A stretch of 36,984 nucleotides of DNA. Origin: an uncultured Bifidobacterium sp. (GTDB lineage: Bacteria > Actinomycetota > Actinomycetes > S36-B12 > UBA5976). The stretch spans positions 1 through 36,984 of the forward strand of contig CAYXYW010000003.1 in assembly GCA_964469855.1 (NCBI GenBank), written 5' to 3'. Every line of letters begins with the position of its first letter. Position 1 is the stretch's first letter. The notes under the pieces were generated by a model, which searched no databases, was not told the DNA's origin, and saw only the letters and a list, made by a program, of their open reading frames with translations. The translations under genes and the position numbers were made by a program. Positions 1 to 27,018 of this stretch are shown here, piece after piece.

Positions 1-45
1 GAGCTAACTCAGCTTCTAATTTCTGAACCCGATCAGTTAATTCAT

Positions 46-1140
46 TCATCGCTGTTCCAAAAATTCAATAATTGCAGCAGCTATCCGCTCACCAGCATGG
101 CCATCCCATAGCGGTGGCACAGTGTCGTTAGGCGTTGGTAGTGCAGCCACTTTCTGCACTAAATTTTCAACTGTTACTAATTGATTGGTGCCATGAGTAA
201 TTGTGATCGGCCGCTCGGTGTTTGGTCGCAACGTTAGGCAAGGTACCTGCAAAATAGTAGTTTCCTCTTGCACGCCACCTGAATCTGTTACGACAAATTT
301 GGCACCCTTAACTAAAGAAATAAAATCAATGTAATTAAGTGGTTCAATCACTTTTATCCGACCATAGTCACCAAGTCCAGCGTTATATAGTGATGTTTTG
401 CCACGTGGGTGAAGGGGTAGCACGATTTGAGTTCGCTTCGACACTTCGCCCAGCGCTGCAACAATTGTTTTTGCTGTCGCTAAATCATCCACATTGCCAG
501 GGCGATGCAACGTTGCAACTGCGTAATCTCCAGTTAAATCTAATTCTGATTTGATCTTTGCTGAATCAAATTCTGCTAGATGAGAAAGCAGCGTATCTAT
601 CATTGAATTGCCAACAAAAACAATCTTACGATCGGCTAATCCTTCATGCTTTAAATTCTGCTCCGCTTCCGGACTAGTGATTAAAAGCAGGTCTGAAAGC
701 TGGTCGGTTAATTTGCGATTTATCTCTTCCGGCATAGATAAATCAAAGCTGCGCAATCCTGCCTCAACGTGCGCTACAGGAATTTCTAATTTGGCGGCAA
801 CTAATGCGGCTGCAACAGTTGAATTGACATCTCCATAAACCACAATCATGGCCGGCTTCACATCAGCAATTGCCTTCTCAAATCCAATCATGATCGCTGC
901 AGTTTGACTCGCATGCGAACCAGAACCCACTCCCAAATTAAGGTCAGGGGTTGGCAGGTTTAGTAATCTGAAAAACGAGTCGCTAAGCGCATCGTCATAA
1001 TGCTGACCGGTGTGGATTAGTTTCTGTGCAACTCCGGCCTTAGCTAACGCAGCAATCACTGGAGCGGCTTTTGGGAAATTGGGTCGCGCCCCAGTAACGT
1101 GGATGACATCGCCACTGTTAATTACTGCCTGCTGCGTCAC
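46..1140 (-). CDS. wecB: UDP-N-acetylglucosamine 2-epimerase (non-hydrolysing)
   Basis: 364-aa ORF with family motifs VTGARPNFPKAAPV, HTGQHYD and HVEAGLRS. GTG start at 1140 is preceded on the minus strand by GGAGAG. Confidence 0.9.
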   Translation of the reverse strand: MTQQAVINSGDVIHVTGARPNFPKAAPVIAALAKAGVAQKLIHTGQHYDDALSDSFFRLLNLPTPDLNLGVGSGSHASQTAAIMIGFEKAIADVKPAMIVVYGDVNSTVAAALVAAKLEIPVAHVEAGLRSFDLSMPEEINRKLTDQLSDLLLITSPEAEQNLKHEGLADRKIVFVGNSMIDTLLSHLAEFDSAKIKSELDLTGDYAVATLHRPGNVDDLATAKTIVAALGEVSKRTQIVLPLHPRGKTSLYNAGLGDYGRIKVIEPLNYIDFISLVKGAKFVVTDSGGVQEETTILQVPCLTLRPNTERPITITHGTNQLVTVENLVQKVAALPTPNDTVPPLWDGHAGERIAAAIIEFLEQR

Positions 1141-1190
1141 TGCGCTCTCCTAAGCGTGAGAAACTTGGCTCTAGCCGTGAGTATTCCACC

Positions 1191-2639
1191 ATGGCATGGG
1201 AAAGTAGGACAGCGTTGCGCTACTTAACTGGGTTGCGAGCCCTGCCATGGGCAATCAGCACCATATTGCTGCGGCTGCTTCGATCCCCCCGGCTAACTCT
1301 AGAAGCCCTGCTGCGAAAGGCTGGGGTAAATCTCCGCAGTAATAAAAAACCAGCCAGATCCCAAGACTTCCCGACAGCAATAACCCGCAACCCAGCACAC
1401 CGCAGCATTAATCCGAAACCAAACTCAGTGTTGCACTTCGTAACAAACTCGCTGCCCTATACCCAAGCCGGCTATACCATTAGAACTCACAACATAATTG
1501 CAGCACAACTAGCAGCTGGCATTTCAGCAGCAGCAGTTACGCGTTATGGCTACCCAATCAATATCGGTAATTTTAGTTCTGGCCACAAAACAGAGTTTGT
1601 AAGTTTTTCTAGCGAGCAAACAATTACTTACCACCATTTAATTCCTAAGAGATTGGCCAGCACTGCAGAATTAGAAGTAGCTGCTACCTCAGCGACAAAA
1701 TTAGTTGCCAAACTTCGACCAAGCGTGCTGCATGCTGCCACCGATTTTGTTAACGGTGAAATTGCTGCTGCTGTTTCGGCAGCAACTGATTTACCGTTTG
1801 CTTATGAAGTGCGAGGCTTTTTAGAGCAGTCTTGGCTGACAAAATCGCCAAGCAACACAATTGAATCAGATTTTTATCAAGAATTTCTGCGCCGCGAAAC
1901 AAACGTAATGCGAAAGGCAGCAGCAATTACCACGCTGAGTGAAACCATGAAAGCTGAAATCATTAAGCGTGGTGTTGCCGCGGACAAAATTCATTTAGTG
2001 CCAAACGCAGTATCAGATCAGTTACTAAAGGAAGTGAAATCAGCAAGCGAAGCAAGAGCGCAACTGCAGCTGCCAGAACTTCCAACGTTTGGCATTGCGA
2101 CAACGCTTTATCCGTTTGAAAATGTCAGCTTGCTAATCACTACCTTGGAACAGTTATGGCAAGACGGCAAACGGGCGCAGTTATTAATTGTGGGTGACGG
2201 ACCAGAATTTGATAATTTAACAGCACAGGCAAACTCCAGCGCAGTCGCTGAACACATTCACTTAGTTGGCCGTAAACCATTCGAGCAAACCATCACTCAT
2301 TATCAAGCGATGGATGTATTTTGTGTGCCACGAACTCAGTCCTTAGTGACTGAGCTAGTCACACCGCTTAAGCCAATTGAAGCTATGGCGCTGGGCCGGC
2401 CAGTTATTGCCAGCAATCTGCCTGCACTTGCCGAGTTAATCAACCATGAACATACCGGATTGTTGGTAGCAGCAGATTCCGCCGCTGCGCTAACCGAAGC
2501 CATCAGTGGACTTCTGTACGATTCAGGGCATCGCCAGCGACTGGCTGCCGCGGCGAAAGACTGGGTGGCAGAAACTCGAACCTGGTCCCAGGTAGCAAAG
2601 ACTTATCAGCAGGTATATCAACAGCTAGGCAAGCCGTAA
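1191..2639 (+). CDS. Glycosyltransferase family 4 (GT-B fold) with Arg/Leu-rich N-terminal extension
   Basis: The C-terminal GT4 signature is EAMALGRPVIASNLPALAELINHEHTGLLV. The GT core starts near residue 79 (VLHFVTNSLPYTQAGYTIRTH). The first ~78 codons are basic and low-complexity, and there is no SD before ATG 1191, so the start is uncertain. Confidence 0.8.
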   Translation: MAWESRTALRYLTGLRALPWAISTILLRLLRSPRLTLEALLRKAGVNLRSNKKPARSQDFPTAITRNPAHRSINPKPNSVLHFVTNSLPYTQAGYTIRTHNIIAAQLAAGISAAAVTRYGYPINIGNFSSGHKTEFVSFSSEQTITYHHLIPKRLASTAELEVAATSATKLVAKLRPSVLHAATDFVNGEIAAAVSAATDLPFAYEVRGFLEQSWLTKSPSNTIESDFYQEFLRRETNVMRKAAAITTLSETMKAEIIKRGVAADKIHLVPNAVSDQLLKEVKSASEARAQLQLPELPTFGIATTLYPFENVSLLITTLEQLWQDGKRAQLLIVGDGPEFDNLTAQANSSAVAEHIHLVGRKPFEQTITHYQAMDVFCVPRTQSLVTELVTPLKPIEAMALGRPVIASNLPALAELINHEHTGLLVAADSAAALTEAISGLLYDSGHRQRLAAAAKDWVAETRTWSQVAKTYQQVYQQLGKP

Positions 2640-2657
2640 CGCTTGCGCGGAGGATTA

Positions 2658-3917
2658 ATGAAGAAGGATCTAGCAGTAATTGGGTTGGGCTATGTTGGCT
2701 TGCCACTCGCCCAAGAAGCAATACGCGCTGGACTGTCAGTAGTTGGTTATGACGTCAGCGATCGAGTGATAACTGGATTAAATGCTGGTAAATCCCATGT
2801 TGATGACTTATCCGATGCTGATATCCAAGCGATGCTGGCTGGCGGATTTTCCGCAACTAAAGATGATCAAGTGCTAGCCGATGCAAAAGCTATTGTGATC
2901 TGCGTTCCAACTCCGCTATCAGAAGATGGCGGACCTGACCTATCTGCCGTGCTTGGTGCAACCCAAGCGGTGGCAAAGAATTTAACTAAGGGTCAACTTA
3001 TAGTTTTGGAATCAACAACTTACCCAGGCACTACCGAAGAAGTCGTACAACCAATTTTGGAAAAAGGAGGGTTGCGCGCTGGTGAGGACTTTTATCTAGC
3101 TTTCTCGCCAGAGCGAATCGATCCGGGCAACAAGAAATTTGGAATGCGCAATACGCCAAAAGTTGTTGGTGGCATAAATCAAATTAGCACTGATAAAGCA
3201 GTTGAGATGTATGCCAATTTTGTTGACACCGTAGTTAGAGCAAAAGGTGCCAAAGAAGCAGAGATGGCAAAGCTGCTAGAAAACACTTACCGTCATATCA
3301 ATATTGCGCTAGTAAATGAAATGGCGATGTTCTGCAATGACTTGGGAATTGATTTGTGGGATGTCATCAGGTGTGCTTCCACTAAACCATTTGGTTTCCA
3401 AGCGTTTTATCCAGGGCCTGGTGTTGGTGGGCACTGCATTCCAATTGATCCAAACTATTTATCTCACCAAGTTAAAACTAACTTGGGATATCCATTTAAG
3501 TTTGTTGAGTTAGCCCAAGAAATAAACGCAGGTATGCCCAACTATGTAATTCGCCGAGTGCAAGATCAACTCAATTCCGTAGGTAAAGCACTGAACGGAG
3601 CTACCGTGCTGTTACTGGGAGTTACCTACAAACCAGATATTGCGGATCAGCGTGAATCCCCCGCTATTCCAATTGGTTTAGGTTTACTGGAAAAGGGTGC
3701 AAATGTGCTGTTCCATGATCCGATGGTAGAGATCTGGCGATTAGAAGGAAAAGAGCTGTCACGAGTGCCAGATCTAGCCAGCGCATTGGCGCAAGCAGAC
3801 ATAACGGTGATGTTGCAAGATCATGCTAGTTATGACTCCGACTTATTGATTAAGAATTCAAACTTGTTATTTGATACTCGAGGAAAATTAGATCACCCAG
3901 AGGTGGAACGACTGTGA
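2658..3917 (+). CDS. UDP-N-acetyl-hexosamine (GlcNAc/ManNAc) 6-dehydrogenase, WbpA/WecC family
   Basis: ATG 2658 is preceded by GGAGGA at 2649-2654, so the TTG 2643 start in the ORF track is probably too early. The N terminus carries the NAD fold VIGLGYVGLPLA. The catalytic-Cys motif GGHCIPIDPNYL is typical of UDP-HexNAc dehydrogenases. Confidence 0.85.
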   Translation: MKKDLAVIGLGYVGLPLAQEAIRAGLSVVGYDVSDRVITGLNAGKSHVDDLSDADIQAMLAGGFSATKDDQVLADAKAIVICVPTPLSEDGGPDLSAVLGATQAVAKNLTKGQLIVLESTTYPGTTEEVVQPILEKGGLRAGEDFYLAFSPERIDPGNKKFGMRNTPKVVGGINQISTDKAVEMYANFVDTVVRAKGAKEAEMAKLLENTYRHINIALVNEMAMFCNDLGIDLWDVIRCASTKPFGFQAFYPGPGVGGHCIPIDPNYLSHQVKTNLGYPFKFVELAQEINAGMPNYVIRRVQDQLNSVGKALNGATVLLLGVTYKPDIADQRESPAIPIGLGLLEKGANVLFHDPMVEIWRLEGKELSRVPDLASALAQADITVMLQDHASYDSDLLIKNSNLLFDTRGKLDHPEVERL

Positions 3918-4750
3918 GTGAATCTCACCAACTAAAACCAGTTGGTCAAAAACTAAGCCTTGGCGCATATCTTAAGGATTTGTGGAAACGCAGATTCTTT
4001 ATGATGTCTTTCGCCCGCGCTCGAGTAGAAGGACAAAACTCCAGTGCCGCACTTGGTCAGTTCTGGTTGCTGCTAACACCGCTGCTAACTGCTGCAGTTT
4101 ATTACTTGTTGTTTGGTGTGATTCTTGGCGTCTCTCGCGGTATTGAAAACTTTATTGCGTTTTTAGTTATTGGCGTAATGATGTTTCGCTTCACCTCAAA
4201 TAGCGCAAATGCAGGATCATTAGCGATCATCTCCAATAAAGGATTAATTCGCTCGTTACATTTTCCGCGAGCTTTGTTGCCAATATCCGCTTCGCTGCAA
4301 CAATTTTTGCAATTTCTCCCTTCTTTTATTGTGGTATTGATTGCGGTAGTTGCAACTGGCGAACCCATTAGATGGACCTGGTTGCTTATAGTTCCAATTG
4401 TTCTAATTCAATTTATTTTTAATACCGGACTTGCGCTACTACTGGCTCGCGTAGTTAATAAGGCGCGTGATTTGGCAAAACTAAGCCCATTTTTGATCCG
4501 AATGTGGGGATATTTAAGTGGAATCTTCTTCAGCATTGAACTGTCTAAGGAGCGATTCCCAGCCGCAATTGAACCGTTCTTGAGTTACAACCCTGCACAT
4601 ATTTTTATGCAGCTAACTCGAAGTATCTTTATTGAATCGATTGATTCCTCAATGCGAGATTGGCTATGGGGAATTGGCTGGGCGATTGCAGTTTTCATTA
4701 TTGGCTTTTATTTCTTCTTCAAGGGTGAAGGCAAGTATGGCCGAGATTGA
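3914..4750 (+). CDS. ABC-2 type polysaccharide/teichoic-acid export permease (Wzm/TagG-like)
   Basis: 278-aa protein with about six hydrophobic helices. The N-terminal motif LKDLWKRRFF is typical of the ABC-2 family. The GTG start overlaps the upstream stop (GTGA) and lies downstream of GAGGTGGA. Confidence 0.85.
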   Translation: MSESHQLKPVGQKLSLGAYLKDLWKRRFFMMSFARARVEGQNSSAALGQFWLLLTPLLTAAVYYLLFGVILGVSRGIENFIAFLVIGVMMFRFTSNSANAGSLAIISNKGLIRSLHFPRALLPISASLQQFLQFLPSFIVVLIAVVATGEPIRWTWLLIVPIVLIQFIFNTGLALLLARVVNKARDLAKLSPFLIRMWGYLSGIFFSIELSKERFPAAIEPFLSYNPAHIFMQLTRSIFIESIDSSMRDWLWGIGWAIAVFIIGFYFFFKGEGKYGRD

Positions 4751-5498
4751 TAACCGGACGGTGGTTGTAGACGATCTTCACGTCTATTATCGAATTCGAA
4801 CTAAAGTCAAAAGTAAGCAGATTGCCGCGAAGCAAAATATGCTTGATAAAGCACTGCGCCGTACCCGCAAAGTTCCGCTAAAAGAAGTGCATGCACTTAA
4901 AGGAATTAGTTTCACCACACATCAAGGTGAAGCAGTTGCCATTATTGGTCGAAATGGTGCCGGCAAAAGCACGCTGCTGCGGGCAATTGCTGGATTGATC
5001 CCAGCCCGCTCTGGCTCTATTCTCACCTCGTCTCAACCATCATTGCTAGGTGTTAATGCTGCATTGATGAATCACTTATCCGGTAGACGAAACATTGAAC
5101 TGGGTGGCCTAGCACTAGGAATGACGCCGGCTGAGGTCGAAGCAAATATGGAAGCCATTATTGAGTTCTCTGGATTAGGGGAATTTATTGATCTGCCGCT
5201 GAGCACTTACTCTTCTGGCATGGGTGCTCGATTGCGTTTTGCAATTGCATCATCCGTACCGCAAGAAATTTTGATGATCGATGAAGCGTTAGCAACTGGT
5301 GATGTTAACTTTAAAAAGCGCTCCCAAGAGCGAATCGCTGAACTCAAAGCAAAAGCTGGTACGGTCTTTTTAGTTAGCCATTCGCATTCAGTAATTCGGG
5401 AAACCTGTACCCGCGCCATTTGGCTTGATAAAGGCAATTTAGTTGCTGATGGACCAATGAATGAAGTTCTAACCGCCTACGAGGAAGCGACCACTTAA
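4737..5498 (+). CDS. Polysaccharide/teichoic-acid export ABC ATPase (Wzt/TagH-like), short form without C-terminal carbohydrate-binding domain
   Basis: Walker A is GRNGAGKSTL, the signature is YSSGMGARL and Walker B is ILMIDEAL. ATG 4737 (MAEIDNRT) lies behind GAAGG and overlaps the permease stop by 14 nt. The 4632 start in the ORF track runs inside the permease gene. Confidence 0.88.
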   Translation: MAEIDNRTVVVDDLHVYYRIRTKVKSKQIAAKQNMLDKALRRTRKVPLKEVHALKGISFTTHQGEAVAIIGRNGAGKSTLLRAIAGLIPARSGSILTSSQPSLLGVNAALMNHLSGRRNIELGGLALGMTPAEVEANMEAIIEFSGLGEFIDLPLSTYSSGMGARLRFAIASSVPQEILMIDEALATGDVNFKKRSQERIAELKAKAGTVFLVSHSHSVIRETCTRAIWLDKGNLVADGPMNEVLTAYEEATT

Positions 5499-5500
5499 TC

Positions 5501-6583
5501 GTGCGGGTGTTGGTAGTGACCGTGGTACACCACCCACAAGATGCACGAATCTACTTCCGTCAGATCGCCGCATTACTCGCAGATGGACATCAAGTTAGTT
5601 ACGCCGCACCATTTGATTCATTTCCAATCACTCAAGTTGATTCCAGAATTGAGACCATAACTATTCCGCGGGCTACCGGAAAACGACGAATTTCAGCACT
5701 GCTTGCGGCAAGGAAACTGCTCCGCACCCGTTCTGTAGATTTTGATGTTGTATTAATTCATGACCCAGAACTGCTGCTAGCGGCAAGCTGTAGCAAAGCT
5801 CCCGTGGTTTGGGATGTTCACGAAGACACTGCTGCTGCAATCTCTGCTAAATCATGGTTGCCAAGTATTTTTCACAAACCTGCTATGAAATTTATCGCTA
5901 AGTTAGAGAGCAAAGCCGAACAGCGCTATCACTTATTGTTGGCTGAAAGTGAATATCAAGCAAGGTTTACAAAATCTCACCCAGTTATTCCAAATACCAC
6001 CGCAGTTGCAAATTACAGTGAAACAGAGCCAACTGATTCGGTTATCTATTTAGGCAATATCACCACACTGCGCGGTGGAAAGACTTTGCTTCAGGTTGGC
6101 AAAGCGTTGAAACAGCATGGTATTTCTCTTGAGTTAATTGGCAGCTGTCCGGAAACTGAGTTGAGCAAACAACTAGTTGCTGCGCAGCATGCTGGGGAAT
6201 TGATTTGGCATGGCTTTTTACCGAACGAGAAAGCAAAACAACTGCTGCCTGGCAAATTGGCAGGGTTGTCGTTGTTGCAAGATCATCCAAATTATCGGGT
6301 AAGTCAACCATCTAAAATTTATGAATACATGGCAGCTGCAATACCAGTGATCACAACTAAATTACCGCATGCGTCACAACTAATTGAAGTTGCAGCTGCT
6401 GGCGTAGTGGTTGAATTTGATAACCCAGAGCAAGTTGTTGCTGAAGTCTTAAGAATTGCTGGCGATTCAGCAAGATGGAAAACATTCAGCAAAAATGGTC
6501 ACAGTTATGTATCACAGCACCACAATTGGAATGTTGATCAGAATAAATTTATTAGCGCGCTCGAAGGTTTCGTGGCGAAGTAA
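5501..6583 (+). CDS. Glycosyltransferase family 4 (GT-B fold)
   Basis: 360 aa with the classic MRVLVVT N terminus. The C-terminal donor-binding region is PSKIYEYMAAAIPVITT...AAAGVVVE. The start lies 2 nt after the wzt-like stop. Confidence 0.8.
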   Translation: MRVLVVTVVHHPQDARIYFRQIAALLADGHQVSYAAPFDSFPITQVDSRIETITIPRATGKRRISALLAARKLLRTRSVDFDVVLIHDPELLLAASCSKAPVVWDVHEDTAAAISAKSWLPSIFHKPAMKFIAKLESKAEQRYHLLLAESEYQARFTKSHPVIPNTTAVANYSETEPTDSVIYLGNITTLRGGKTLLQVGKALKQHGISLELIGSCPETELSKQLVAAQHAGELIWHGFLPNEKAKQLLPGKLAGLSLLQDHPNYRVSQPSKIYEYMAAAIPVITTKLPHASQLIEVAAAGVVVEFDNPEQVVAEVLRIAGDSARWKTFSKNGHSYVSQHHNWNVDQNKFISALEGFVAK

Positions 6584-7553
6584 GAAATCCAACACCCCAG
6601 CAGGTATGCATGGTCAGCAACACTACTGGTTGCCAAAGTAGTGAAGAAAGTTTGCGCTTATTAAAAATAGCTAATGAGCCGACCAAAATTAATGACAGAT
6701 AGCCAGCAATCGGTAAATAAAACAGCCAAGACCAACTCTGGCCAAGCAACGACGTCAAAAGTAATAAACTAAAAGAGGTAGTTAACGCCAACACCGTAAA
6801 AGGTGGTGCCAAATACCTAAGCGATTTAGTTTCTGGATACGTTCGTGCAACTTCTCGTCGCCATCTGCCATATTCAAAATATTGCTTTGCCAGTGCTTTA
6901 ACTGATGACCTGGGCCTGTAAGTAACTTCCAATCTGGGATCAAACCAAACTTTGCCACCTGATTGCCGGATTCGATAATTCATTTCCCAATCTTGAGCTC
7001 GAATGAAAGATTCGTCATAGCCGCCAACCCGCTCGATTGCGCTTCGTCTAAAGACACCTAAGTAAACAGTCATTGTTTCACCTGCGCCGCCACCTGTGTG
7101 AAATCGTGCTGGCCCAACTCCTAACACGCTCCGCATTGCTGCAGCTACTGCAATTTCAAACTTAGTTCTGCCGGTTGCTGCCATCACACCACCTACAACA
7201 TCTGCTCCTGTTTCCGCGAGCACTGCAGTTGCGGTTTGGATGTAATTTGGTGTCAGCAGCGAATGCCCATCAACCCGAACGATCACGTCATATTGTGATT
7301 GTGCAATTGCTAAGTTCAATGCGGCAGCTGTTTTACCTGATGGATTTGCCACTAATTTCACTCGAGGATCTGCCGCGGACATTTTTTCGGCAATCTGATT
7401 AGTGTTATCGACCGAGGGGCCAAGCGCCAAAATCAGCTCAATTGGACCGGGCACATTCTGGGTCAAGATCTCAGTCACCGCAGCAGCCAGATGTTTTGCT
7501 TCATTCAAAACTGGCATCACAACGCTAACTCCAACTAGCGGCCCGGTGTTCAT
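6552..7553 (-). CDS. Glycosyltransferase family 2 (GT-A) with C-terminal transmembrane segments
   Basis: GT2 hallmarks are VSVVMPVLNEAKHL, VRVDGHS and AQDWEMNYR. The C-terminal ~90 aa are hydrophobic (3-4 predicted helices). I chose ATG 7553 (MNTGPL) as the start, not the longer ORF reaching 7622. Confidence 0.8.
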   Translation of the reverse strand: MNTGPLVGVSVVMPVLNEAKHLAAAVTEILTQNVPGPIELILALGPSVDNTNQIAEKMSAADPRVKLVANPSGKTAAALNLAIAQSQYDVIVRVDGHSLLTPNYIQTATAVLAETGADVVGGVMAATGRTKFEIAVAAAMRSVLGVGPARFHTGGGAGETMTVYLGVFRRSAIERVGGYDESFIRAQDWEMNYRIRQSGGKVWFDPRLEVTYRPRSSVKALAKQYFEYGRWRREVARTYPETKSLRYLAPPFTVLALTTSFSLLLLTSLLGQSWSWLFYLPIAGYLSLILVGSLAIFNKRKLSSLLWQPVVLLTMHTCWGVGFLTSPRNLRAR

Positions 7554-7578
7554 GGTGTAAAACCTTAGCGGTGAGAGA

Positions 7579-8703
7579 ATGTGCGCCGTAACCAGAAGGG
7601 ACAACGTGTCGGACCAATCCAAGATCGTGCTTCACATTGGAACCATGAAGTCTGGCACCACCTACTTACAGCATGGATTGCTTAATCAATCCCAACAGTT
7701 GACTGCGAATGGCTGGCTTTACCCAATGATGTTCGCGCCAGCGCGGGGTGCAATTAACCATGAGCGTGCCATATATGGCTTAGTTGGCAATCACATCCCA
7801 TGGGTAGATAGCGCAACACAACAGCGGATGGCGCCGCAATGGCAGAAGTTAATTGCAGAAATTTCATCCACTGACAAGAATGTTCTAGTCTCAGCAGAAG
7901 CAGTTGCTTCGATGCTAGAAGACGGAATTGAACAATTAGTTGCAGCACTACCAAATCGAGAAATTGAAGTAGTACTTACTGCTCGCGACTTAGCCCGGGT
8001 GTTGCCATCATCATGGCAACAAAGTGTGCGCAATGGTAGACCGTATGGATATGAGGAATATTTTGATCGAATTAAAAGAGCTAAGGAATTGCCAATAACT
8101 GAATCAGTTGGTAGTAACTTTTGGCGCAGCTATCAATTAAGCGATGTAGTTAACCGATGGCAGAAATTCATCCCGCTCGAAAAAATATCTATTGTCACCG
8201 TTCCAGCAAAAACCAGCACCGACACACTATGGCAGCGTTTTGTCACAGCGCTGCAGTTGCCGCTAGAAACAACTGAACCAAAATTCGATGACAAAAAATC
8301 ACACACTTCCATAACTTGGCCAGAAGCTGAAGTGTTAATTGAGCTGAATCAAAAATGGGCAAGACAGCGAAAATCTAAAAAAGTGCAAAATCAATTACGG
8401 CGCAGAATTGTGCAAGAAGGTTTTCAGCAGCGCAGCAATCGTGGTCGTGCCATTGGCTTAACTGCGCCATGGCTGTCGCTAGCGCAGCGCTGGGCGGCAG
8501 CTGATGTTGAACAGTTGTTGACGTCAGGCGTAAACATTCATGGCGACATCAACGATCTGCTGGTATCGCCAGATCAATTAGCTGCTGAGCTTTGTTCCGC
8601 TGCTGAAATTGCTGATGCAGCAGCAGTTGCCTCTCGGTTTCACGATCGATTACGACTACAGGCGATAACCGCCCTTTTTGGCATCTCTGGCAAACGCCGC
8701 TAG
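7579..8703 (+). CDS. Sulfotransferase-like protein (putative PAPS-dependent glycan sulfotransferase) with ~170-aa C-terminal extension of unknown function
   Basis: A 5'-PSB-like loop (VLHIGTMKSGTTYLQ, compare PKSGTTW) lies at residues 17-31. A 3'-PB-like R-x7-S element (LTARDLARVLPSS) lies at residues 133-145. The gene is immediately upstream of ugd-cysD-cysNC on the same strand. An alternative GTG start at 7605 sits behind GAAGGG. Confidence 0.5.
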   Translation: MCAVTRRDNVSDQSKIVLHIGTMKSGTTYLQHGLLNQSQQLTANGWLYPMMFAPARGAINHERAIYGLVGNHIPWVDSATQQRMAPQWQKLIAEISSTDKNVLVSAEAVASMLEDGIEQLVAALPNREIEVVLTARDLARVLPSSWQQSVRNGRPYGYEEYFDRIKRAKELPITESVGSNFWRSYQLSDVVNRWQKFIPLEKISIVTVPAKTSTDTLWQRFVTALQLPLETTEPKFDDKKSHTSITWPEAEVLIELNQKWARQRKSKKVQNQLRRRIVQEGFQQRSNRGRAIGLTAPWLSLAQRWAAADVEQLLTSGVNIHGDINDLLVSPDQLAAELCSAAEIADAAAVASRFHDRLRLQAITALFGISGKRR

Positions 8704-8735
8704 GGTAGATTTAGCCCATCAATCGCTAGGAATTA

Positions 8736-10049
8736 ATGACTACAGGCATGCGGGTCACTGTTGTTGGCTGCGGCTATTTAGGCGCAGTGTTGGCAGCAGT
8801 TTTGGCTGAACAAGGAAATCAGGTAATTGGCCTTGATATTGACGATGCCAGAATTTCCCAACTAAATGCTGGTATTGTCCCATTTTATGAACCTGAATTT
8901 GAATCGGTGCTGCAAAATTCACTAGCAGCTGGAAATTTAACTTTCACAACTAATGCCGAAAGCATAGCAACAAGTGAAATTGTCTTTATCTGCGTTGGCA
9001 CACCACAGCAAAATGGTGGTGCTGCTGATTTATCGCAACTATGGGCTGCTGCTGATTCAATCGCACCACACTTAGCCGAAACTGCAGTAATTGTTGGCCG
9101 CTCTACAGTTCCCGTTGGCACAGCGAGCAAATTAGAGCAACGAATCAATCAAAAATCAGGCCGCACCTACCAACTTGCCTGGAATCCTGAATTTCTTCGG
9201 GAGGGTCATGCAGTTAGCGATACTCGCCTACCCGATCGAATCGTAATTGGCGCATCGTCAGTTAATGTGATTAATAAAATTAAAGAAATTTATCAACCGC
9301 AACTCGATAAGAAAGTTCCGTTCTTAGTAATGGATGTGCCGACTGCAGAATTAGTTAAAGTGTCGGCTAATGCTTTTCTCGCCACAAAAATTTCATTTAT
9401 TAATGCAATTTCGGAAGTTGCTGATATTGCTGGCGCCGACATAACTGCACTAGCTGAAGCTATCGGACTTGATCCTCGAATTGGAAATAAATTTCTTGCC
9501 GCTGGAGTCGGGTTTGGCGGCGGCTGTTTACCAAAAGATATTCGTGCCTTTATTGCCAGCAGCCAAGAGCTTGGTGCTGGCGAGGCGATGCAATTTCTAG
9601 TTGAAGTAGATCGGATAAATCAACGACAGCGAGCACGAGTTGTTGCACTAGCAAAGCAAGCATTAGGTGATTTAACTGACAAGAAAGTGGTGGTGTTAGG
9701 CGCTGCGTTTAAACCAAACAGCGATGATGTCAGAGACTCCCCTGCGCTGGATGTGGCATACGCAATTCATCAGTTGGGTGCCCAGGTTTTTGTCCACGAC
9801 CCAAAGGCCATTGATAATGCCAAGGTCCGCTATCCAGAATTGAATTATGAGCGTGACCTCACCGAGATCTTTAAGAATTCTGACCTAGTATTACACCTAA
9901 CCGAATGGGAGCAATACCGAGAGTTAGACCCGACCAAATTGCTCAGCCAGGTTACAAATGCAGTAATAATTGATGGTAGAAACGTATTGGACTTTAACAA
10001 GTGGCAATCTGCTGGCTGGCAGATTACCGGAATGGGTAAACGAGCTTAA
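8736..10049 (+). CDS. ugd: UDP-glucose 6-dehydrogenase
   Basis: 437 aa. The N-terminal Rossmann motif is VVGCGYLGAVLAAVLA. The catalytic-Cys motif GFGGGCLPKDIRAF is typical of Ugd. Confidence 0.9.
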   Translation: MTTGMRVTVVGCGYLGAVLAAVLAEQGNQVIGLDIDDARISQLNAGIVPFYEPEFESVLQNSLAAGNLTFTTNAESIATSEIVFICVGTPQQNGGAADLSQLWAAADSIAPHLAETAVIVGRSTVPVGTASKLEQRINQKSGRTYQLAWNPEFLREGHAVSDTRLPDRIVIGASSVNVINKIKEIYQPQLDKKVPFLVMDVPTAELVKVSANAFLATKISFINAISEVADIAGADITALAEAIGLDPRIGNKFLAAGVGFGGGCLPKDIRAFIASSQELGAGEAMQFLVEVDRINQRQRARVVALAKQALGDLTDKKVVVLGAAFKPNSDDVRDSPALDVAYAIHQLGAQVFVHDPKAIDNAKVRYPELNYERDLTEIFKNSDLVLHLTEWEQYRELDPTKLLSQVTNAVIIDGRNVLDFNKWQSAGWQITGMGKRA

Positions 10050-10966
10050 TGACTAAGTTATCGGTTAGCACTGATGAAGTGCTTGATGCACTTGAAGCTG
10101 AAGCAATTGGAATTCTCCGCGAAACCGCAGGTGCGTTTAAGAATCCAGTTCTAATGTATTCAATTGGTAAAGATTCCAGTGTGTTGCTGGAGTTAGCTCG
10201 TAAGGCTTTTGCGCCAGCGCCAATTCCATTCACTTTCTTGCACATCGATACCACTTTTAAATTCCGAGACATGATCGAATTTCGAGATCGCAAAGCAAAA
10301 GAGTTCGGTCTAAATCTCATAGTTCACACCAATCCTGAGGGCGCTAACGGCGAAGTTACAGCGTGGACTCATGGCGCACAGGAATACACCAGAATCATGA
10401 AAACTGTTGCACTCCGCCAGGCCTTAGATGCTGGCGGTTACGACGCTGCTATTGGCGGTGCGCGCCGAGATGAAGAGCGCTCCCGATCGAAAGAGCGGGT
10501 ATTTAGTTTGCGTGAAGCTGGGCATCGATGGGAGCCAAGAAATCAGCGACCAGAGATGTGGCGAACTCGCAATACTTCACTTAGCGAAGGTCAAACCATG
10601 CGAGTCTTCCCGCTAAGTAACTGGACTGAAATTGACGTTTGGCGATATGTTCGACGAGAAAATATTGAGATTGTTCCACTTTATTACGCCGCACCACGAC
10701 GCAGCATTATCCGTGATGGCCAAATTTTGGTGCTAGATGATGATCGAATGCCGCTGCTCGATGGTGAAGTTCCACAAGACCGAGTAGTCCGATTCCGGTC
10801 ACTTGGATGCTATCCAGTTTCAGCAGCGATTGAGTCAACGGCAACCACAATTGATGAATTAGTTGCTGAGATGGAAGCGACCAGAGTAAGTGAGCGAGCT
10901 GGCCGGTTAATTGATGGTGATCGCGAAGCATCAATGGAAGCCAAAAAAGCTGAGGGGTACTTCTAA
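10049..10966 (+). CDS. cysD: Sulfate adenylyltransferase subunit 2
   Basis: 305 aa of the PAPS-reductase-fold family. Motifs include VLMYSIGKDSSVLL and HIDTTFKFRDMIEFRD, with the C terminus EAKKAEGYF. The start overlaps the ugd stop (TAATG). Confidence 0.93.
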   Translation: MTKLSVSTDEVLDALEAEAIGILRETAGAFKNPVLMYSIGKDSSVLLELARKAFAPAPIPFTFLHIDTTFKFRDMIEFRDRKAKEFGLNLIVHTNPEGANGEVTAWTHGAQEYTRIMKTVALRQALDAGGYDAAIGGARRDEERSRSKERVFSLREAGHRWEPRNQRPEMWRTRNTSLSEGQTMRVFPLSNWTEIDVWRYVRRENIEIVPLYYAAPRRSIIRDGQILVLDDDRMPLLDGEVPQDRVVRFRSLGCYPVSAAIESTATTIDELVAEMEATRVSERAGRLIDGDREASMEAKKAEGYF

Positions 10967-12804
10967 TGTCAAGAGCAGTAGCCCCATTACTTCGTGTCGT
11001 AACTTGTGGTTCAGTAGACGATGGCAAAAGCACTTTAATTGGTCGCTTGCTTGTTGAGACTGAGTCGGTGCCGCTAGATGAAGTTGAGCGCGCCCGTACA
11101 TATCGCCGTGCTGGCTCAATAATTCCAGTAGGTGAAGTTGATTACTCGCTTCTTACCGATGGTCTTGAAGCAGAACGCGAACAAGGCATCACTATTGATG
11201 TTGCTTACCGTCATCTATTGCTGCCATCCGGTCGTCGCGTTGTGCTAGCAGATGGTCCAGGTCATGAGCAATACACCAGAAATATGGCGGTTGCAGCATC
11301 AGATGCCGATGTTGCGTTATTGCTTGTTGATGCCACCAAGGGAGTGCGCGATCAAACAATGCGCCACCTCACCGTTTGTGCATTAATGAAGGTAGGCACT
11401 GTTGTTGCAGTTATTAACAAACTTGATGCGAAGGATTTTTCTGAACAGCTAGTTACAGAAATTTCAGCGAAGTTGACCGAAGCCGCTGATCGGCTAGGCA
11501 TAAAAAGCTTGGTGATAATTCCAGTTAGTGCATTACTTGGTGATAACGTAATTGAGCGAAGCAATAACACACCATGGTATGACGGACCAACTGTGCTTGG
11601 TGCGCTACAGCAATGGATGCCTGGCACCTCACTAAACAATGCGTCACTTCGCATTCCAGTCCAGACCATTTTGCGTGCAGATGATTGGCGTGGTTATGGC
11701 GGCACTGTGGTTAGTGGAAGTTTGAAACTTGGTGACTCGTTTGTTGTGGCACAAAGTGGTAAGACCGCCAAGATCGCCCAACTTTATGTAAACGGAAAAC
11801 CAGCAGAAGTGGCATTAGCAACTGACGCAGTTGCAATTAAACCTGATGTGGAAATTGATATTTCTCGCGGCGATGTGCTTTGTGCGGAGAATGAACAACT
11901 ACAACCGGCAGATCGATTTTCAGCCGATTTAGTCTGGATTGGCGAAGAGCCATTAGCTCACGGTCGCTCCTATGCCTTAATCAGCGGCCCAACTTCAGTG
12001 AACGCAACTGTTACCACTATTCGACACAAATTAGATGTCAATACTGGCCATGAAGATGCGGCTCGCGTTTTAAACTTAAATGAGATTGGTCGCGTCACAA
12101 TCGCCACCGAGAAACCAATTCCGCTTGATCTTTACAGTGATGTGCGAGATACCGGCGGTTTCTTATTGGTTGATCGAGTAACTAAACACACTGTTGCTGC
12201 TGGCATGGTGCACCACGTGCTACGCCGTTCATTCAATGTCGTGCCGCATGAATTTGAGATAAATAAAGAAGCTCGTAGCAGACTTAAAGCACAAACGCCA
12301 AAAGTGATCTGGCTAACCGGCTTACCAGGTTCTGGAAAATCAACATTGGCAAATGAAGTTGAGCGCCGTTTATATGCCGCTGGCGTTCACACTTATCTGC
12401 TTGATGGCGATAACGTCCGAACTGGATTAAATAAAGATCTAGGCTTCACTGCAACTGATCGGGCAGAAAACGTAAGACGAGTTGGTGAAGTTGCCAAATT
12501 GATGGTTGATGCTGGCTTAGTGGTGTTAGTTTCACTCGTCTCGCCATTTAGAAGTGACCGAGATGCGGTCAAGGAGTTATTCCCTGCCGGTGAATTTGTT
12601 GAAGTATTTGTTGACACTCCAGTTGAGATCTGCGCGCAACGTGATCCAAAGGGTCTCTATGCCAAAGCGCAAGCAGGCGATCTGCCTAACATGACTGGTA
12701 TGGGACAAAACTATGAACCGCCGCTGCATGCAGATTTAGTTGTTGATGGCACAGCAGATTTAGCACAAAGCGCAGCGCTGGTAATTTCAAAAATTATGAA
12801 TTAA
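10966..12804 (+). CDS. cysNC: Bifunctional sulfate adenylyltransferase subunit 1 (GTPase) / adenylylsulfate (APS) kinase
   Basis: The N-terminal half has GTPase motifs [18 protein letters not shown] and NKLD. The C-terminal ~180 aa form an APS kinase with P-loop [11 protein letters not shown] and LDGDNVR. The start overlaps the cysD stop (TAATG). Confidence 0.93.
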
Positions 12805-13306
12805 GTTGCTGCTTAAGTTTTTGCTGTAATTCATCATTTTTGGTAACAACCAAATCAGCAAGTTCTGCCCGATAGCTGTCGAGCTTTGCTTGTAATTGAG
12901 AATCTGTCGCTGCCAAAATCCGAAGTGCTAACAATCCAGCATTTTTAGCCCCATTTATCGCAACTGTGGCAACCGGAACTCCAGCTGGCATCTGCACCAC
13001 ACTCAACAATGAGTCCAATCCATCTAACTGAGATAGCGCAACTGGAACACCAATGACTGGCAAACTGGTAGCTGAGGCAATCATTCCAGGCAGATGTGCT
13101 GCCCCACCGGCACCCGCAATAATTACTTGAATACCTGAATCGGCTGCGTTAGCAGCAAATTCCAACATTTGGGTTGGAGTTCGATGCGCGGAGATGACCG
13201 CAACTTCAGCAGCTACACCAAATTCTTGCAGCGTAATAACTGCAGGCTCCATGGTGAGCCAGTCCGAGTCTGACCCCATTACAACAGCGACTTTAGCTGT
13301 GGTCAT
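12794..13306 (-). CDS. purE: N5-carboxyaminoimidazole ribonucleotide mutase
   Basis: 170 aa with motifs [11 protein letters not shown] and [13 protein letters not shown]. Confidence 0.93.
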
Positions 13307-15272: not shown

Positions 15273-16856
15273 ATGAACACCGCTGATTCCCATAATCCCA
15301 GGTCCACAGCAGGCAAGCTGGAGGAGTTGGCGATCTTTCGTGATCATGCGCTGCATTCTGCAACAGCTGCAGCAATTGAGCGTCAGCACAAACGCGGTAA
15401 ACAAACTGCTCGGGAACGCATCGCGCAGTTGTTGGACGAGGGCTCATTTGTTGAGCTCGATGAATTAGTACGACACCGATCCAGCAACTTTGGGTTAGAC
15501 GAAGATCGGCCATTCGGCGATGGTGTAGTTACCGGCTACGGCACCATTGATGGCCGACCTGTTGCCATCTTCGCGCAAGACTTCACCATTTTTGGTGGTT
15601 CGCTTGGTGAAGTTATGGGCGAAAAAATTGTAAAAGTAATGGATTGGGCGATTAAAAATGGTTGCCCAATAATTGGAATTCAAGATAGTGGTGGTGCGCG
15701 AATTCAAGAAGGTGTGTCATCACTTGATCTTTATGGTGAGATTTTCTATCGAAACGTTTTAGCATCTGGTGTCATCCCGCAGATTTCATTGATTATGGGG
15801 CCATGTGCTGGTGGTGCTGTTTATTCCCCTGCGTTAACAGATTTCGTTGTGATGGTGAATGAAACATCCCACATGTTTATTACCGGTCCCGATGTAATTA
15901 AAACAGTAACTGGTGAAGATGTTGGCTTTGAAGAACTTGGCGGTGCAGTTGCGCACACCACAAAGTCTGGTGTGGCACATTACGCCGCAACTGATGAAGC
16001 AGATGCACTTAATTATGTAAAGGCGCTGCTCTCTTATCTGCCAAGTAATAATTTGGATCGAGCACCCGGTTATGACGCAACTGCAGATCTAGAAGCAACC
16101 GACTCTGACCTGGCACTAAACCAATTAATTCCTGATGAATCAAATCAGCCATATGACATGTTCAAGTTGATTGAAGCTCTATTAGATGATGGTGACTATT
16201 TAGAAATTCAACCTAATTTTGCCCCAAACATAATCACCTGTTTTGGTCGAGTAGAAGGTCAATCAGTTGGAATTGTGGCGAATCAACCAATGCAATTTGC
16301 TGGCACATTAGATATTAATGCTTCTGAAAAAGCTGCTCGATTCGTCCGCACCTGCGATGCCTTCAATATTCCAGTTATTAGCTTGGTTGATGTGCCGGGC
16401 TTCTTGCCTGGCACTAATCAGGAATGGGATGGCATCATCCGTCGCGGTGCGAAACTTATTTATGCCTACGCTGAAGCAACCGTGCCAAAAATTACTTTGA
16501 TCACCCGAAAAGCATATGGCGGTGCCTATGTTGTGATGGGCGCAAAGAGTCTGCGAGCTGACATTAACTTTGCTTGGCCTACTGGCCAAATTGCGGTGAT
16601 GGGGGCATCTGGTGCAGTGAGTATCATCCATCGCAAAGAGATTGCTGATGCTGAAGATAAAGAGGCAACTCGCGCTGAGTTGCTACGGGAATATGAAGAT
16701 ACGTTAGATAACCCATACGTTGCTGCTGAACGTGGCTATATTGATCGAATCATTTTGCCCAGTGAAACTCGAGCTGAAATTGTGAAAGCGTTGCGGGCAC
16801 TGAGAAACAAACGGGATCAAACACCTATCCGTAAGCACGGAAACATCCCGCTATGA
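15273..16856 (+). CDS. accD5: Acyl-CoA (propionyl/acetyl-CoA) carboxylase carboxyltransferase beta subunit
   Basis: ATG 15273 is preceded by AGGAGG at 15263-15268. The carboxyltransferase motifs are [22 protein letters not shown] and [13 protein letters not shown]. Confidence 0.92.
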
Positions 16857-17047
16857 GTAAGTTGAATTTGAAAGTGATAAGTGGCAGCGCAACTGCCGAT
16901 GAGATTGCCGCGATCATGGCAGTAGTAACTGCGCTTTCAAATCAGCAACCAAGCGCAGCAGTTCAGAGGTCAAATTGGTCAAATCCTGCACTGCTGCATC
17001 GTCGCCCGCTGCCAGTTAACTGGACCACCAGTTATTTGCCGAGGTAA
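16853..17047 (+). CDS. accE5: Acyl-CoA carboxylase epsilon subunit
   Basis: 64-aa ORF coupled to the accD5 stop by an ATGA overlap. The sequence pattern (ISG..T.DEIAAI.AVV, then W...LL.RRPLP) is typical of actinobacterial AccE/PccE. Confidence 0.7.
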
Positions 17048-25575: not shown

Positions 25576-27018
25576 ATGAAATTTGAATACGCACCAGCAC
25601 CTGAATCAACTTCCATTGTTGATATCAAACCAAGTTATGACTTATTTATTGCTGGCAATTTTGTTGCCAGCAAAACCGGCAGAAAATTTGAAACCATAAA
25701 TCCAGCAACTGAAGCGGTGTTGGCTGAAATCACTGAGGCTAGTGACGTTGATGTTGATGCTGCGGTTAAAGCCGCTCGTAATGCATTTAAGTCCTGGTCT
25801 AAATTGCCAGGCACTGAGCGGGCGAAATACATTTATCGAATTGCCCGCATAATTCAAGATCGCGCTCGAGAGATTGCGGTGCTAGAGACGCTAAATAATG
25901 GCAAGCCAATTCGAGAATCTAGAGATGTAGATATTCCGTTGGTTGCAGCACATTTCTTCCATTATGCCGGCTGGGCAGACAAGTTGGAATATGCCGGCAT
26001 GGGGCCAGCCCCAACGCCACACGGCGTAGTAGGACAGATCATTCCGTGGAACTTCCCGATGTTGATGCTGGCATGGAAGATTGCACCGGCATTAGCTGCT
26101 GGAAACACTGTGGTGCTCAAGCCAGCAGAAACCACATCACTAACTGCGCTGTTGTTTGCTGAAATCTGCCAACAAGCAGAGCTACCAGATGGTGTGGTGA
26201 ACATCGTAACTGGCGCAGGAAATACTGGTCGTGCGATTGTTAATCATCCTGACATCAACAAGATCGCCTTTACTGGCTCAACTGAAGTTGGCCGCATGAT
26301 TGCGCAAGCCGCTGCTGGCACGGAAAAGAAGTTGACCTTAGAGCTCGGTGGAAAAGCTGCCAATATTGTGTTTGATGATGCGCCGATTGATCAAACCGTT
26401 GAAGGCATTGTGAATGGCATTTTCTTCAATCAAGGGCACGTTTGCTGTGCTGGCTCAAGATTGCTAGTGCAAGAATCAATTCATGATGAATTAATGGCGC
26501 TGCTCTACCAGCGACTTGATTTGCTGCGCGTTGGCGATCCGCTAGATAAAAATACTGATGTTGGCGCAATCAACTCCGCCGCCCAACTAGCAAAAATAAA
26601 TGAGCTAGCAGCATCTGGCGATGCAGAAGGGGCTCACCGCTGGAGCGCTTCTTGTGCACTACCAGCAACTGGTTTTTGGTTTCCGCCAACTGTATTTACT
26701 AATGTGTCTCAAGCGCATCGAATTGCTCGCGAAGAGATCTTTGGTCCGGTGCTAAGCGTGCTGACCTTCCGCACGCCGGATGAAGCAATCGCCAAGGCAA
26801 ATAACACGCCATACGGCCTAAGCGCCGGCATCTGGACTGAAAAAGGCAGCCGAATTTTGGAGGTGGCCAGCAAGCTACGCGCTGGCGTGGTCTGGGCAAA
26901 CACCTTCAATAAATTTGATCCAACCAGTCCGTTTGGTGGCTACAAAGAATCTGGCTATGGCCGCGAAGGTGGCCGACATGGTTTAGAAGCATATTTGGTA
27001 GCGAGCAAGCATGACTAA
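25576..27018 (+). CDS. NAD(P)-dependent aldehyde dehydrogenase (full length; likely acetaldehyde-oxidising in this context)
   Basis: 480 aa with all ALDH hallmarks: IIPWNFP, VVLKPAE, FTGSTEVG, LELGGK, catalytic Cys in QGHVCCAGSR, and EEIFGPV. Confidence 0.9.
   Translation: MKFEYAPAPESTSIVDIKPSYDLFIAGNFVASKTGRKFETINPATEAVLAEITEASDVDVDAAVKAARNAFKSWSKLPGTERAKYIYRIARIIQDRAREIAVLETLNNGKPIRESRDVDIPLVAAHFFHYAGWADKLEYAGMGPAPTPHGVVGQIIPWNFPMLMLAWKIAPALAAGNTVVLKPAETTSLTALLFAEICQQAELPDGVVNIVTGAGNTGRAIVNHPDINKIAFTGSTEVGRMIAQAAAGTEKKLTLELGGKAANIVFDDAPIDQTVEGIVNGIFFNQGHVCCAGSRLLVQESIHDELMALLYQRLDLLRVGDPLDKNTDVGAINSAAQLAKINELAASGDAEGAHRWSASCALPATGFWFPPTVFTNVSQAHRIAREEIFGPVLSVLTFRTPDEAIAKANNTPYGLSAGIWTEKGSRILEVASKLRAGVVWANTFNKFDPTSPFGGYKESGYGREGGRHGLEAYLVASKHD

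Follow-up and report, generated by a model that had tools for sequence, protein, structure and literature searches.

A gene cluster for the predicted assembly, sulfation and export of an acidic cell wall polymer in an uncultured freshwater Nanopelagicales actinobacterium

What kind of polymer is made by a cluster of sugar-nucleotide, glycosyltransferase and ATP-binding cassette (ABC) exporter genes that adjoins the purE-purK-birA backbone of an actinobacterial chromosome, and by what route would that polymer reach the cell wall? The question is raised by positions 46-12804 of contig CAYXYW010000003.1, a whole 36,984-bp contig of a metagenome-assembled genome (MAG), which is analyzed here at its full length and is referred to below as the window. 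A preliminary description had interpreted this locus as the source of an ABC-exported acidic glycopolymer resembling teichuronic acid. That interpretation is supported by the present analysis, with the chemistry of the polymer and its linkage to the wall remaining matters of inference. The additions made here are a predicted sulfation module, the finding that the contig stops partway through the cluster, the presence upstream in relatives of an LCP-family ligase gene and a double-domain glycosyltransferase gene, the conservation of the cluster within its clade, and the wide distribution of a core module. The answer that we favour, with moderate confidence, is that the cluster builds, sulfates and exports an acidic sugar polymer for the cell wall in an uncultured freshwater Nanopelagicales actinobacterium. 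On this reading the chain would contain uronic acids and would be both built and sulfated before it leaves the cytoplasm; a TarGH-like transporter would then export it, and ligation to peptidoglycan would probably follow.

The evidence was obtained by listing of open reading frames (ORFs), scans with Pfam and NCBIfam models, sequence matches to the PDB, an AlphaFold model, and comparisons with Foldseek and hhalign. The window has a G+C content of about 46%. Its PNP, Cdd and CysD proteins share 90%-identity clusters with proteins from Candidatus Nanopelagicales bacterium, Actinomycetota bacterium and freshwater metagenome MAGs, and near-identical DNA is present in many aquatic and freshwater metagenomes.

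Sugar precursors, glycosyltransferases and export

The supply of activated uronic acids would begin with WecB/MnaA (46..1140, minus strand), a non-hydrolysing epimerase (PF02350, 4e-99; TIGR00236, 302.7 bits against a cut-off of 210) predicted to convert uridine diphosphate (UDP)-N-acetylglucosamine (UDP-GlcNAc) to UDP-N-acetylmannosamine (UDP-ManNAc) by acting at carbon 2. The second enzyme is a WecC-like UDP-N-acetylhexosamine 6-dehydrogenase (2643..3917, plus strand), which contains all three UDPG_MGDP_dh domains and scores 264-269 bits with the NCBIfam models for UDP-ManNAc dehydrogenases versus 213 bits with TviB, all of these under the equivalog cut-offs. Its best match in the PDB is Staphylococcus aureus Cap5O (2e-64), followed by a Pyrococcus dehydrogenase that forms UDP-N-acetylmannosaminuronic acid (UDP-ManNAcA), with the UDP-ManNAc dehydrogenases of Escherichia coli also near. 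The pairing of wecB with wecC recurs in dozens of loci, across phyla. Because its nearest matches are UDP-ManNAc dehydrogenases and its gene is linked to wecB across phyla, UDP-ManNAcA is the best guess for the product of the WecC-like enzyme, which is most probably a UDP-ManNAc dehydrogenase. The remaining dehydrogenase, Ugd (8736..10049, plus strand), has the sequence of a typical UDP-glucose 6-dehydrogenase, to judge from its Pfam domains (7.9e-58, 1.9e-29 and 3.6e-28), its match to the PDB entry 4a7p for UGD (2.9e-92) and a score of 392 bits with the TuaD model (cut-off 700), and it would provide UDP-glucuronic acid (UDP-GlcA).

Once the precursors are made, a chain would be started on undecaprenyl phosphate by an unlinked enzyme of the WecA/TagO type and elongated at the cytoplasmic face of the membrane by the glycosyltransferases of the cluster. 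The first of these, GT4a (1191..2639, plus strand; 482 residues, about 53 kDa), heads an operon divergent from wecB and is recognized by Glycos_transf_1 (3.9e-28) and Glyco_trans_4_4; its best NCBIfam match is stp3 (272 bits, under the cut-off), and it is kept at 38-41% identity in Nocardiopsis and other loci. GT4b (5501..6583, plus strand; 360 residues) matches Glyco_trans_1_4, Glycos_transf_1 and Glyco_transf_4, and is a member of the core module described below, with 40-46% identity in other lineages. The third, GT2 (6552..7553, minus strand; 333 residues), matches Glycos_transf_2 (1.7e-20), Glyco_tranf_2_3 and GT21, shows weak NCBIfam matches to MftF, EpsD, PgaC and HpnI, and would be anchored in the membrane by two or three C-terminal helices, its hydrophobic segments lying at residues 248-298. 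A fourth candidate for elongation is a double-domain glycosyltransferase of 741-742 residues (GT741), which is encoded just beyond the end of the contig in all relatives. Searches of PDB sequences with GT2, GT4a and GT741 returned generic matches or none, and give no donor or acceptor.

The exporter comprises a Wzm/TarG-type ABC-2 permease (3914..4750, plus strand; PF01061) with about six hydrophobic segments and a Wzt/TarH-type ABC ATPase of 253 residues (4737..5498, plus strand), the ORF of which was listed from 4632 and is assigned its true start at 4737 by its length in all relatives. In the PDB the permease matches TarG (9cfp, 2.3e-13), Aquifex Wzm and the Mycobacterium tuberculosis galactan permease RfbD, and the ATPase matches TarH (6jbh, 5.6e-50), TagH, Aquifex Wzt and M. 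tuberculosis RfbE. The NCBIfam models for TagH and the galactan Wzt score 167-181 bits with the ATPase, versus 86 bits for DrrA. The exact 253-residue product is on record, and one member of its cluster is named teichoic acid transport ATP-binding protein; the protein has no C-terminal carbohydrate-binding domain. By these matches the exporter is nearest to glycopolymer exporters. TarGH/TagGH rank first, Aquifex Wzm-Wzt and the mycobacterial galactan exporter come next, and the pair encoded here would move the finished lipid-linked polymer across the membrane.

Other routes of assembly are not represented among the products of the locus. All ORFs of at least 60 residues in positions 1-12804 were accounted for, and since Wzm and the tail of GT2 are the sole hydrophobic products, the locus has no Wzx flippase or Wzy polymerase; neither was found in the 10 kb of upstream flank in relatives. 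Pfam scans of all large ORFs detected no WecA/MraY-type, WbaP-type, WecG/TagA-type or LCP domain in the window, and no TagF/Glyphos_transf, TagD or TarIJ domain occurs in any ORF of the locus or of the upstream flank. Models for TuaC, TuaG and TuaH give 17-55 bits only, against cut-offs of 400-550.

These results bear out what had been proposed for the gene content. WecB, the two dehydrogenases, the three glycosyltransferases and the Wzm/Wzt pair named in the preliminary description are all present with strong family matches, and its statements that Wzx and Wzy are missing from the locus, and that a priming enzyme, TagA and LCP are missing from the window, agree with the scans above. The two dehydrogenases fall with UDP-ManNAc and UDP-glucose dehydrogenases, as the proposed classes would have it, and the proposed ABC export is upheld by the finding that the nearest solved relatives of the exporter are all glycopolymer exporters, so that these matches do not place it with non-glycan ABC-2 transporters. 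The list was incomplete in one respect: it omitted a 374-residue ORF, CysD and CysN-CysC, all of which lie within 46-12804. One point counts against the polymer chemistry as drawn here. Because both dehydrogenases score under the NCBIfam equivalog cut-offs, their predicted substrates are not fixed, and all that is said of the product is a prediction.

The candidate sulfotransferase and its supply of PAPS

Sulfation, on which the preliminary description touched only in passing, is what separates this locus from classical teichuronic acid. Sulfate would be converted to 3'-phosphoadenosine 5'-phosphosulfate (PAPS) by the sulfate adenylyltransferase small subunit CysD (10049..10966, plus strand; TIGR02039, 444 bits, cut-off 397) and by a CysN-CysC fusion (10966..12804, plus strand) of the GTPase subunit of that enzyme with adenosine 5'-phosphosulfate kinase (APS_kinase, 1.5e-64; GTP_EFTU; NF004035, 746 bits, cut-off 715). 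According to published reports, Nanopelagicales in culture have no assimilatory sulfate reduction and depend on reduced sulfur (PMC5301498, PMC12817590, bioRxiv 10.1101/343640), and for this reason PAPS is more likely to serve here as a sulfuryl donor.

The putative user of this PAPS is the 374-residue protein (7579..8703, plus strand), a predicted soluble sulfotransferase that has no membrane segment and no Pfam or NCBIfam match, even at E <= 1. An alignment of 43 diverse members of its family contains the motif HIGxxKSGTTYLQ, in which K24 and T28 are invariant and G26 and T27 are conserved in at least 90% of members, and the motif TARDLARxLPS, in which the invariant R136 stands at the end of the strand 128-135 and S144 follows eight residues on, in the helix 138-151; S105, E107, W146 and R220 are also invariant. 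The KSGTT-type loop is the 5'-phosphosulfate-binding loop of sulfotransferases and is distinct from the Walker A motif GxxxxGK[ST], while the spacing of Arg and Ser is that of the 3'-phosphate-binding motif. The two motifs of the family thus appear to be of the 5'-phosphosulfate-binding and 3'-phosphate-binding kinds, and not of the Walker A kind. In the AlphaFold model (pLDDT 91, pTM 0.88) both lie in strand-loop-helix elements. The top Foldseek matches of this model in the PDB, with probability 1.00, are 3bd9, 1nst and 3rnl, the leading structures being human heparan sulfate 3-O-sulfotransferase-5 with 3'-phosphoadenosine 5'-phosphate (PAP), the sulfotransferase domain of NDST1 and a bacterial sulfotransferase. 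Matches below threshold to Sulfotransfer_3 were obtained for 12 of the 43 family members, and to Sulfotransfer_1 for 8 of them. Taken with the genomic context, the motifs and the modelled fold make it likely that the protein is a PAPS-dependent carbohydrate sulfotransferase of an unannotated family, one that would sulfate the chain in the cytoplasm.

Several observations weigh against sulfation, and most of them fit an improbable alternative in which the polymer is unsulfated, CysD and CysN-CysC serve sulfur assimilation or some other target, and the 374-residue protein is a P-loop kinase or has another function. The Foldseek matches have only modest TM-scores (0.34-0.53), with P-loop kinases further down the list. 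The family profile matched only noise among PDB sequences, and hhalign comparisons of the family with a single canonical sulfotransferase and with a six-sequence alignment (E 0.079 for the latter) were not significant, so that sequence comparison ties the protein significantly to no known sulfotransferase; in the comparison with the alignment TARDLARxLPS is placed, without significance, on the canonical YRDPRDVVAS. Some distant members of the family lie outside glycan loci. Finally, the deficit in sulfate reduction is that of cultured relatives, and this genome is represented by one contig as far as cysH and sulfite reductase are concerned. Against the unsulfated alternative stand the xKSGTT motif, which is of the phosphosulfate-binding type, the carbohydrate sulfotransferases with bound PAP at the head of the structural matches, and the reported lack of sulfate assimilation in the lineage. 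The genetic setting points the same way: the gene heads an operon with ugd, cysD and cysNC, and paralogues adjoin canonical sulfotransferases beside the same core module in other genomes. A PAPS-dependent sulfotransferase acting on the polymer is for these reasons the reading retained.

The family is large. At 50% identity it comprises 2,378 clusters when the limit is E <= 1e-30, tandem fusions of about 750-800 residues among them, and 8,108 when it is E <= 1e-10, and the 151 indexed homologues of the protein are all unnamed or hypothetical, the closest being in Nanopelagicales-type MAGs (97% for a partial sequence, 80%, and 67-70%). Many of the top matches to the family profile (P0121-P0133 and others) are about 700-850 residues long with two matched stretches, and represent a tandem-duplicated or fused domain. 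In Motilibacter aurantiacus a 37% homologue (L085, 10001-11185) stands alone beside accA3 and near maf, in the same backbone region without glycan genes. Another locus (L087, 3789-7034) encodes a 1081-residue fusion of a GT741-like double glycosyltransferase with Methyltransf_21, beside genes of the sulfotransferase family.

Extent, probable wall linkage and distribution of the cluster

The left edge of the locus is an assembly break inside the wecB operon and not a biological end, because bases 2-49 encode the start of a conserved gene of that operon. On the minus strand these bases give MNELTDRVQKLEAELA. In the relative L001, the gene that follows wecB begins with the same residues and encodes a 209-residue conserved protein with no assigned function; the 16 codons are all that remains of this gene (1..49, minus strand), the next in the wecB operon, where it is cut by the end of the contig. 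The upstream flank is known from relatives only. There, the 209-residue gene is followed to the left by GT741 and by a convergent gene for a protein with LCP and LytR_C domains, and further left by genes for a SpoIID-like protein, a ManC-type nucleotidyltransferase, a phosphomannomutase, an isomerase of the phosphoglucose/phosphomannose isomerase (PGI/PMI) type and SahH. A WecB 91% identical to the window's is encoded on a 6-kb contig, L088, that carries a GT4 gene, wecB, the 209-residue gene, GT741 and the LCP gene. The LCP gene of relatives is thus three genes past position 1 of the window, and no priming transferase is encoded within 10 kb upstream in these genomes. It had been suggested that the system is either incomplete in the window or completed by components encoded elsewhere, and both turn out to apply. 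The whole cluster probably measures about 17 kb, of which the window would hold the two-thirds on the right.

At the right-hand boundary stands purE (12794..13306, minus strand; AIRC, 7.3e-64), the first backbone gene, which overlaps the stop of cysNC by 11 nt, a junction also found in the relatives L001, L002 and L003. It is followed by purK, birA, accD5, an accE-like gene, maf and accA3, which substantiates the backbone that had been described as adjoining the locus. The gaps between the genes of the locus range from -32 to +50 nt. Within the two plus-strand operons they are smaller, from -14 to +3 nt in GT4a-wecC-wzm-wzt-GT4b and -1 nt in ugd-cysD-cysNC, and these operons are translationally coupled.

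The order of genes from wecB to accA3 is identical to that of the window in L001 (80% identity of the sulfotransferase), L002, L090 and L093 (67%), L089 (64%) and the UBA959-type loci L005 and L094 (56%). The cluster is therefore a stable, native chromosomal part in this clade. The comparison across related genomes that the preliminary description had proposed as a check of variability reveals conservation within the clade, with clade-specific additions beside a widespread core. The sole difference in content among the syntenic loci is an extra gene for an S-adenosylmethionine (SAM)-dependent methyltransferase, which lies in L005 (1579-2430, plus strand), and identically in L094, on the opposite strand between the sulfotransferase gene and ugd. 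Two other origins of the cluster were considered and rejected. A hypervariable glycan island is ruled out for this clade by the constant order and the single methyltransferase difference; a recent horizontal-transfer island is ruled out by a GC content of 0.461, against 0.468 in the rest of the window, by a similar GC content at third codon positions (GC3), and by a gene order fixed in five lineages.

The adjacency of the LCP/LytR_C gene in relatives suggests that its product would join the exported polymer to peptidoglycan. Two facts count against that step: the gene is convergent with the cluster, and is not co-transcribed with it, and its product is probably an orthologue of the general actinobacterial ligase of the Rv3267/LcpA type. 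The adjacency may for these reasons mean backbone synteny only. An unlikely alternative, in which the same sulfated acidic polymer is exported by the ABC transporter but is released as a capsule or exopolysaccharide or is retained as a lipid-anchored glycan, takes up the same facts, since a convergent LCP gene in a backbone position common to mycobacteria (PMC7831098) may encode a housekeeping ligase; it also draws on the weak resemblance of GT2 to the membrane-embedded, lipid-acting GT2 enzymes HpnI, GT21 and CruG. What speaks for the wall instead is that monoderm TarGH-like exporters, the closest relatives of the exporter here, hand undecaprenyl-linked polymers to LCP ligases, and that LCP adjoins the same module in loci of other lineages too (L036, L038, L051 and L055). 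The ligase might also transfer the glycan to a surface protein and not to peptidoglycan, in the manner of Actinomyces oris LcpA, which glycosylates GspA (PMC7831098). We regard this as very improbable: no candidate acceptor protein or sortase occurs in or near the locus, and the LCP plus LytR_C architecture is that of corynebacterial and mycobacterial wall-polymer ligases (PMC7831098).

Outside the clade, the set of wecB, GT4a, wecC, wzm and wzt (these two in some cases), GT4b and GT741 recurs at 38-71% identity. Its hosts, by their names as deposited, include Nocardiopsis, Streptomonospora, Allonocardiopsis, Plantactinospora and Kineosporia, as well as a Bifidobacterium breve MAG, other freshwater actinobacterial MAGs and Limnocylindrales (Chloroflexota). 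LCP genes follow GT741 in several loci of the Nocardiopsis group and in L038. In loci of the L086 type the core module occupies another neighbourhood, ribF-rpsO-pnp-dapB, and is flanked by two paralogues of the 374-residue family and a canonical Sulfotransfer_1 protein. The three sulfotransferase-type genes stand in a row in L086 (7942-11065) and in homologous stretches of L011, L016, L024, L028, L040 and L043, the Sulfotransfer_1 product having a C-terminal membrane anchor.

Between the widespread core module and purE, the genes for GT2, the sulfotransferase, Ugd and CysD/CysN-CysC are clade-specific additions. This arrangement, together with the membrane tail of GT2 and its weak similarity to lipid glycosyltransferases, would suit a division of the cluster between two products, a ManNAcA polymer made by wecB through GT4b and a separate sulfated glucuronosyl lipid or glycolipid anchor made by the added genes. 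Such a division is highly unlikely in view of the associations seen elsewhere, the sulfotransferase family accompanying the core module in L086-type loci that have neither GT2 nor ugd, and a GT2 homologue (53% identity) standing beside the core module in a Kineosporiaceae MAG. A single sulfated polymer remains the preferred product.

The remainder of the window consists of nucleoside salvage genes. Promoter and terminator scans gave fewer matches than in shuffled sequence, and Rfam and tRNA scans found none. Weak support for transcription comes from one lake RNA-Seq run with scattered low-depth contigs at 90-95% identity, in which DNA carry-over is possible. The longest-ORF starts at 4632 (wzt), 7622 (GT2) and 15132 (accD5) are over-extended relative to the lengths in relatives (253, 333-334 and 527 residues) and create false overlaps of 100-185 nt. 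A 64-residue ORF (16853-17047, plus strand), under the 100-residue threshold of the ORF listing, lies between accD5 and maf, where relatives carry the ACC_epsilon (AccE) gene. For another ORF, of 278 residues (27011-27847, plus strand), the match to the aldehyde dehydrogenase family covers the N-terminal half only (profile positions 14-232 of 461). This ORF stands immediately 3' of a full-length aldehyde dehydrogenase gene (25576-27018), overlaps an adenosine deaminase gene at its end, and may be either a paralogue that has been truncated or the remnant of a gene.

Significance and comparison with known systems

Nanopelagicales are among the most abundant freshwater bacteria, and because of this abundance their surface chemistry bears on phage adsorption, protist grazing and dissolved organic matter. 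Sulfated polysaccharides are regarded as rare in bacteria, and to our knowledge sulfated wall polymers have not yet been experimentally shown in this phylum. A 2026 paper treats sulfated polysaccharides in actinomycetes as predicted only (PMC13390465), teichuronic acids have been called poorly characterised (PMC13274773), and the accessible literature on the Micrococcus luteus polymer does not settle its transport or genetics (PMC3005890). The locus offers a complete and testable gene set for an ABC-exported, sulfated wall polymer containing uronic acids, a candidate for a new sulfotransferase family with thousands of members, and a rationale for the retention of PAPS synthesis in a lineage that, by published reports, cannot reduce sulfate.

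A bolder proposition, which we put forward as possible and not as probable, is that the 374-residue protein founds a very large family of carbohydrate sulfotransferases and that the streamlined freshwater Nanopelagicales, though unable to assimilate sulfate, keep CysD and CysN-CysC solely to sulfate a teichuronic-acid-like wall polymer. If it is true, many soil actinomycetes and the abundant bacterioplankton of fresh water would commonly carry sulfated wall polymers, which would be determinants of surface charge and of interactions with phages and grazers, as well as an overlooked sink for sulfate. The set of wecB, GT4, wecC, wzm-wzt, GT4 and GT741 would then be the long-missing gene set for actinobacterial teichuronic acids of the ManNAcA type.

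Among known systems, the teichuronic acid of M. luteus, [ManNAcA-Glc]n, begins with UDP-GlcNAc, after which membrane-associated glycosyltransferases extend it from UDP-ManNAcA and UDP-glucose (PMC3005890). The predicted polymer would share with it an actinobacterial wall setting, the presence of ManNAcA, elongation from UDP-sugars at the cytoplasmic membrane and independence of a TagA-type ManNAc transferase, and GT4a (about 53 kDa) has nearly the same size as the TUAS subunits (52.5 and 54 kDa). The likeness is drawn from predicted chemistry, the M. luteus genes not being identified in the accessible literature. The supply of UDP-GlcA, the synthesis of PAPS and the sulfotransferase set the present locus apart, none of these being known for the M. 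luteus polymer.

The tuaABCDEFGH system of Bacillus subtilis also makes an acidic wall polymer containing uronic acids, and has in common with this locus a UDP-glucose dehydrogenase (TuaD-like) and enzymes of the GT4 and GT2 families. It uses TuaB, a Wzx-like flippase, and TuaE, a Wzy-like polymerase, whereas no Wzx- or Wzy-like gene is present here and the TuaC, TuaG and TuaH models score far under their cut-offs. By these sequence comparisons, the locus falls outside the B. subtilis Tua system. Wall teichoic acid systems with TarGH/TagGH and LCP are related through the exporter and WecB/MnaA, and through a predicted route of completion on undecaprenyl phosphate in the cytoplasm, ABC export and ligation by LCP. 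They differ in the polyol-phosphate genes (TagD, TagF, TarIJL) and TagA, which are missing here, and the acidity of the present polymer is predicted to come from carboxylate and sulfate and not from phosphate.

The genomic setting matches that of mycobacteria. The LCP, ManC, phosphomannomutase and SahH genes that flank the cluster in relatives correspond to the mycobacterial backbone Rv3248c-Rv3267, and the two share the succession sahH, phosphomannomutase, manC, LCP and purE-purK-birA-accD5-accE-maf-accA3, as well as a similar Wzm/Wzt pair (Rv3781/Rv3783). The predicted route also follows the logic of mycobacterial galactan synthesis. The mycobacterial purE is Rv3275c. At the position of the present cluster, in their arabinogalactan linker region (Rv3264c-Rv3267), mycobacteria have wbbL-rmlD, whereas here a cluster of about 17 kb with other sugars stands between LCP and purE. 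The mycobacterial neighbourhood that the preliminary description had invoked is thus recovered in relatives, in the order sahH, PGI/PMI, phosphomannomutase, ManC, LCP, locus and purE, and agrees with the manB-wbbL-rmlD operon (PMC9366312) and with the identification of Rv3267 as an LCP protein (PMC7831098).

Gram-negative ABC-dependent O-antigen systems of the Klebsiella O2a type resemble the locus in having Wzm/Wzt without Wzx/Wzy and a multi-domain glycosyltransferase, for which GT741 of the relatives is the counterpart as a candidate polymerase. Compared with the E. coli O8/O9a type, Wzt here has no cap-reading carbohydrate-binding domain, and no WbdD-like terminator is present. The host, in addition, is monoderm, and the predicted end point of the polymer is peptidoglycan and not lipid A-core.

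The locus is unlike the Streptomyces utr cluster (PMC13274773). With PAPS-dependent systems for the sulfation of glycoconjugates it has in common the arrangement in which CysD and CysN-CysC would feed a dedicated sulfotransferase encoded with the glycan genes, and a sulfated polysaccharide as the predicted product. The rhizobial NodPQ/NodH and the M. tuberculosis CysDNC/Stf0 systems are parallels for PAPS-dependent sulfation. The cyanobacterial synechan cluster xss and the predicted Actinoplanes cluster wps-1 are Wzx/Wzy-dependent and encode sulfotransferases recognisable by Pfam (PMC8205485, PMC13390465), whereas the present cluster combines a predicted ABC-dependent route with a putative sulfotransferase of an unannotated family.

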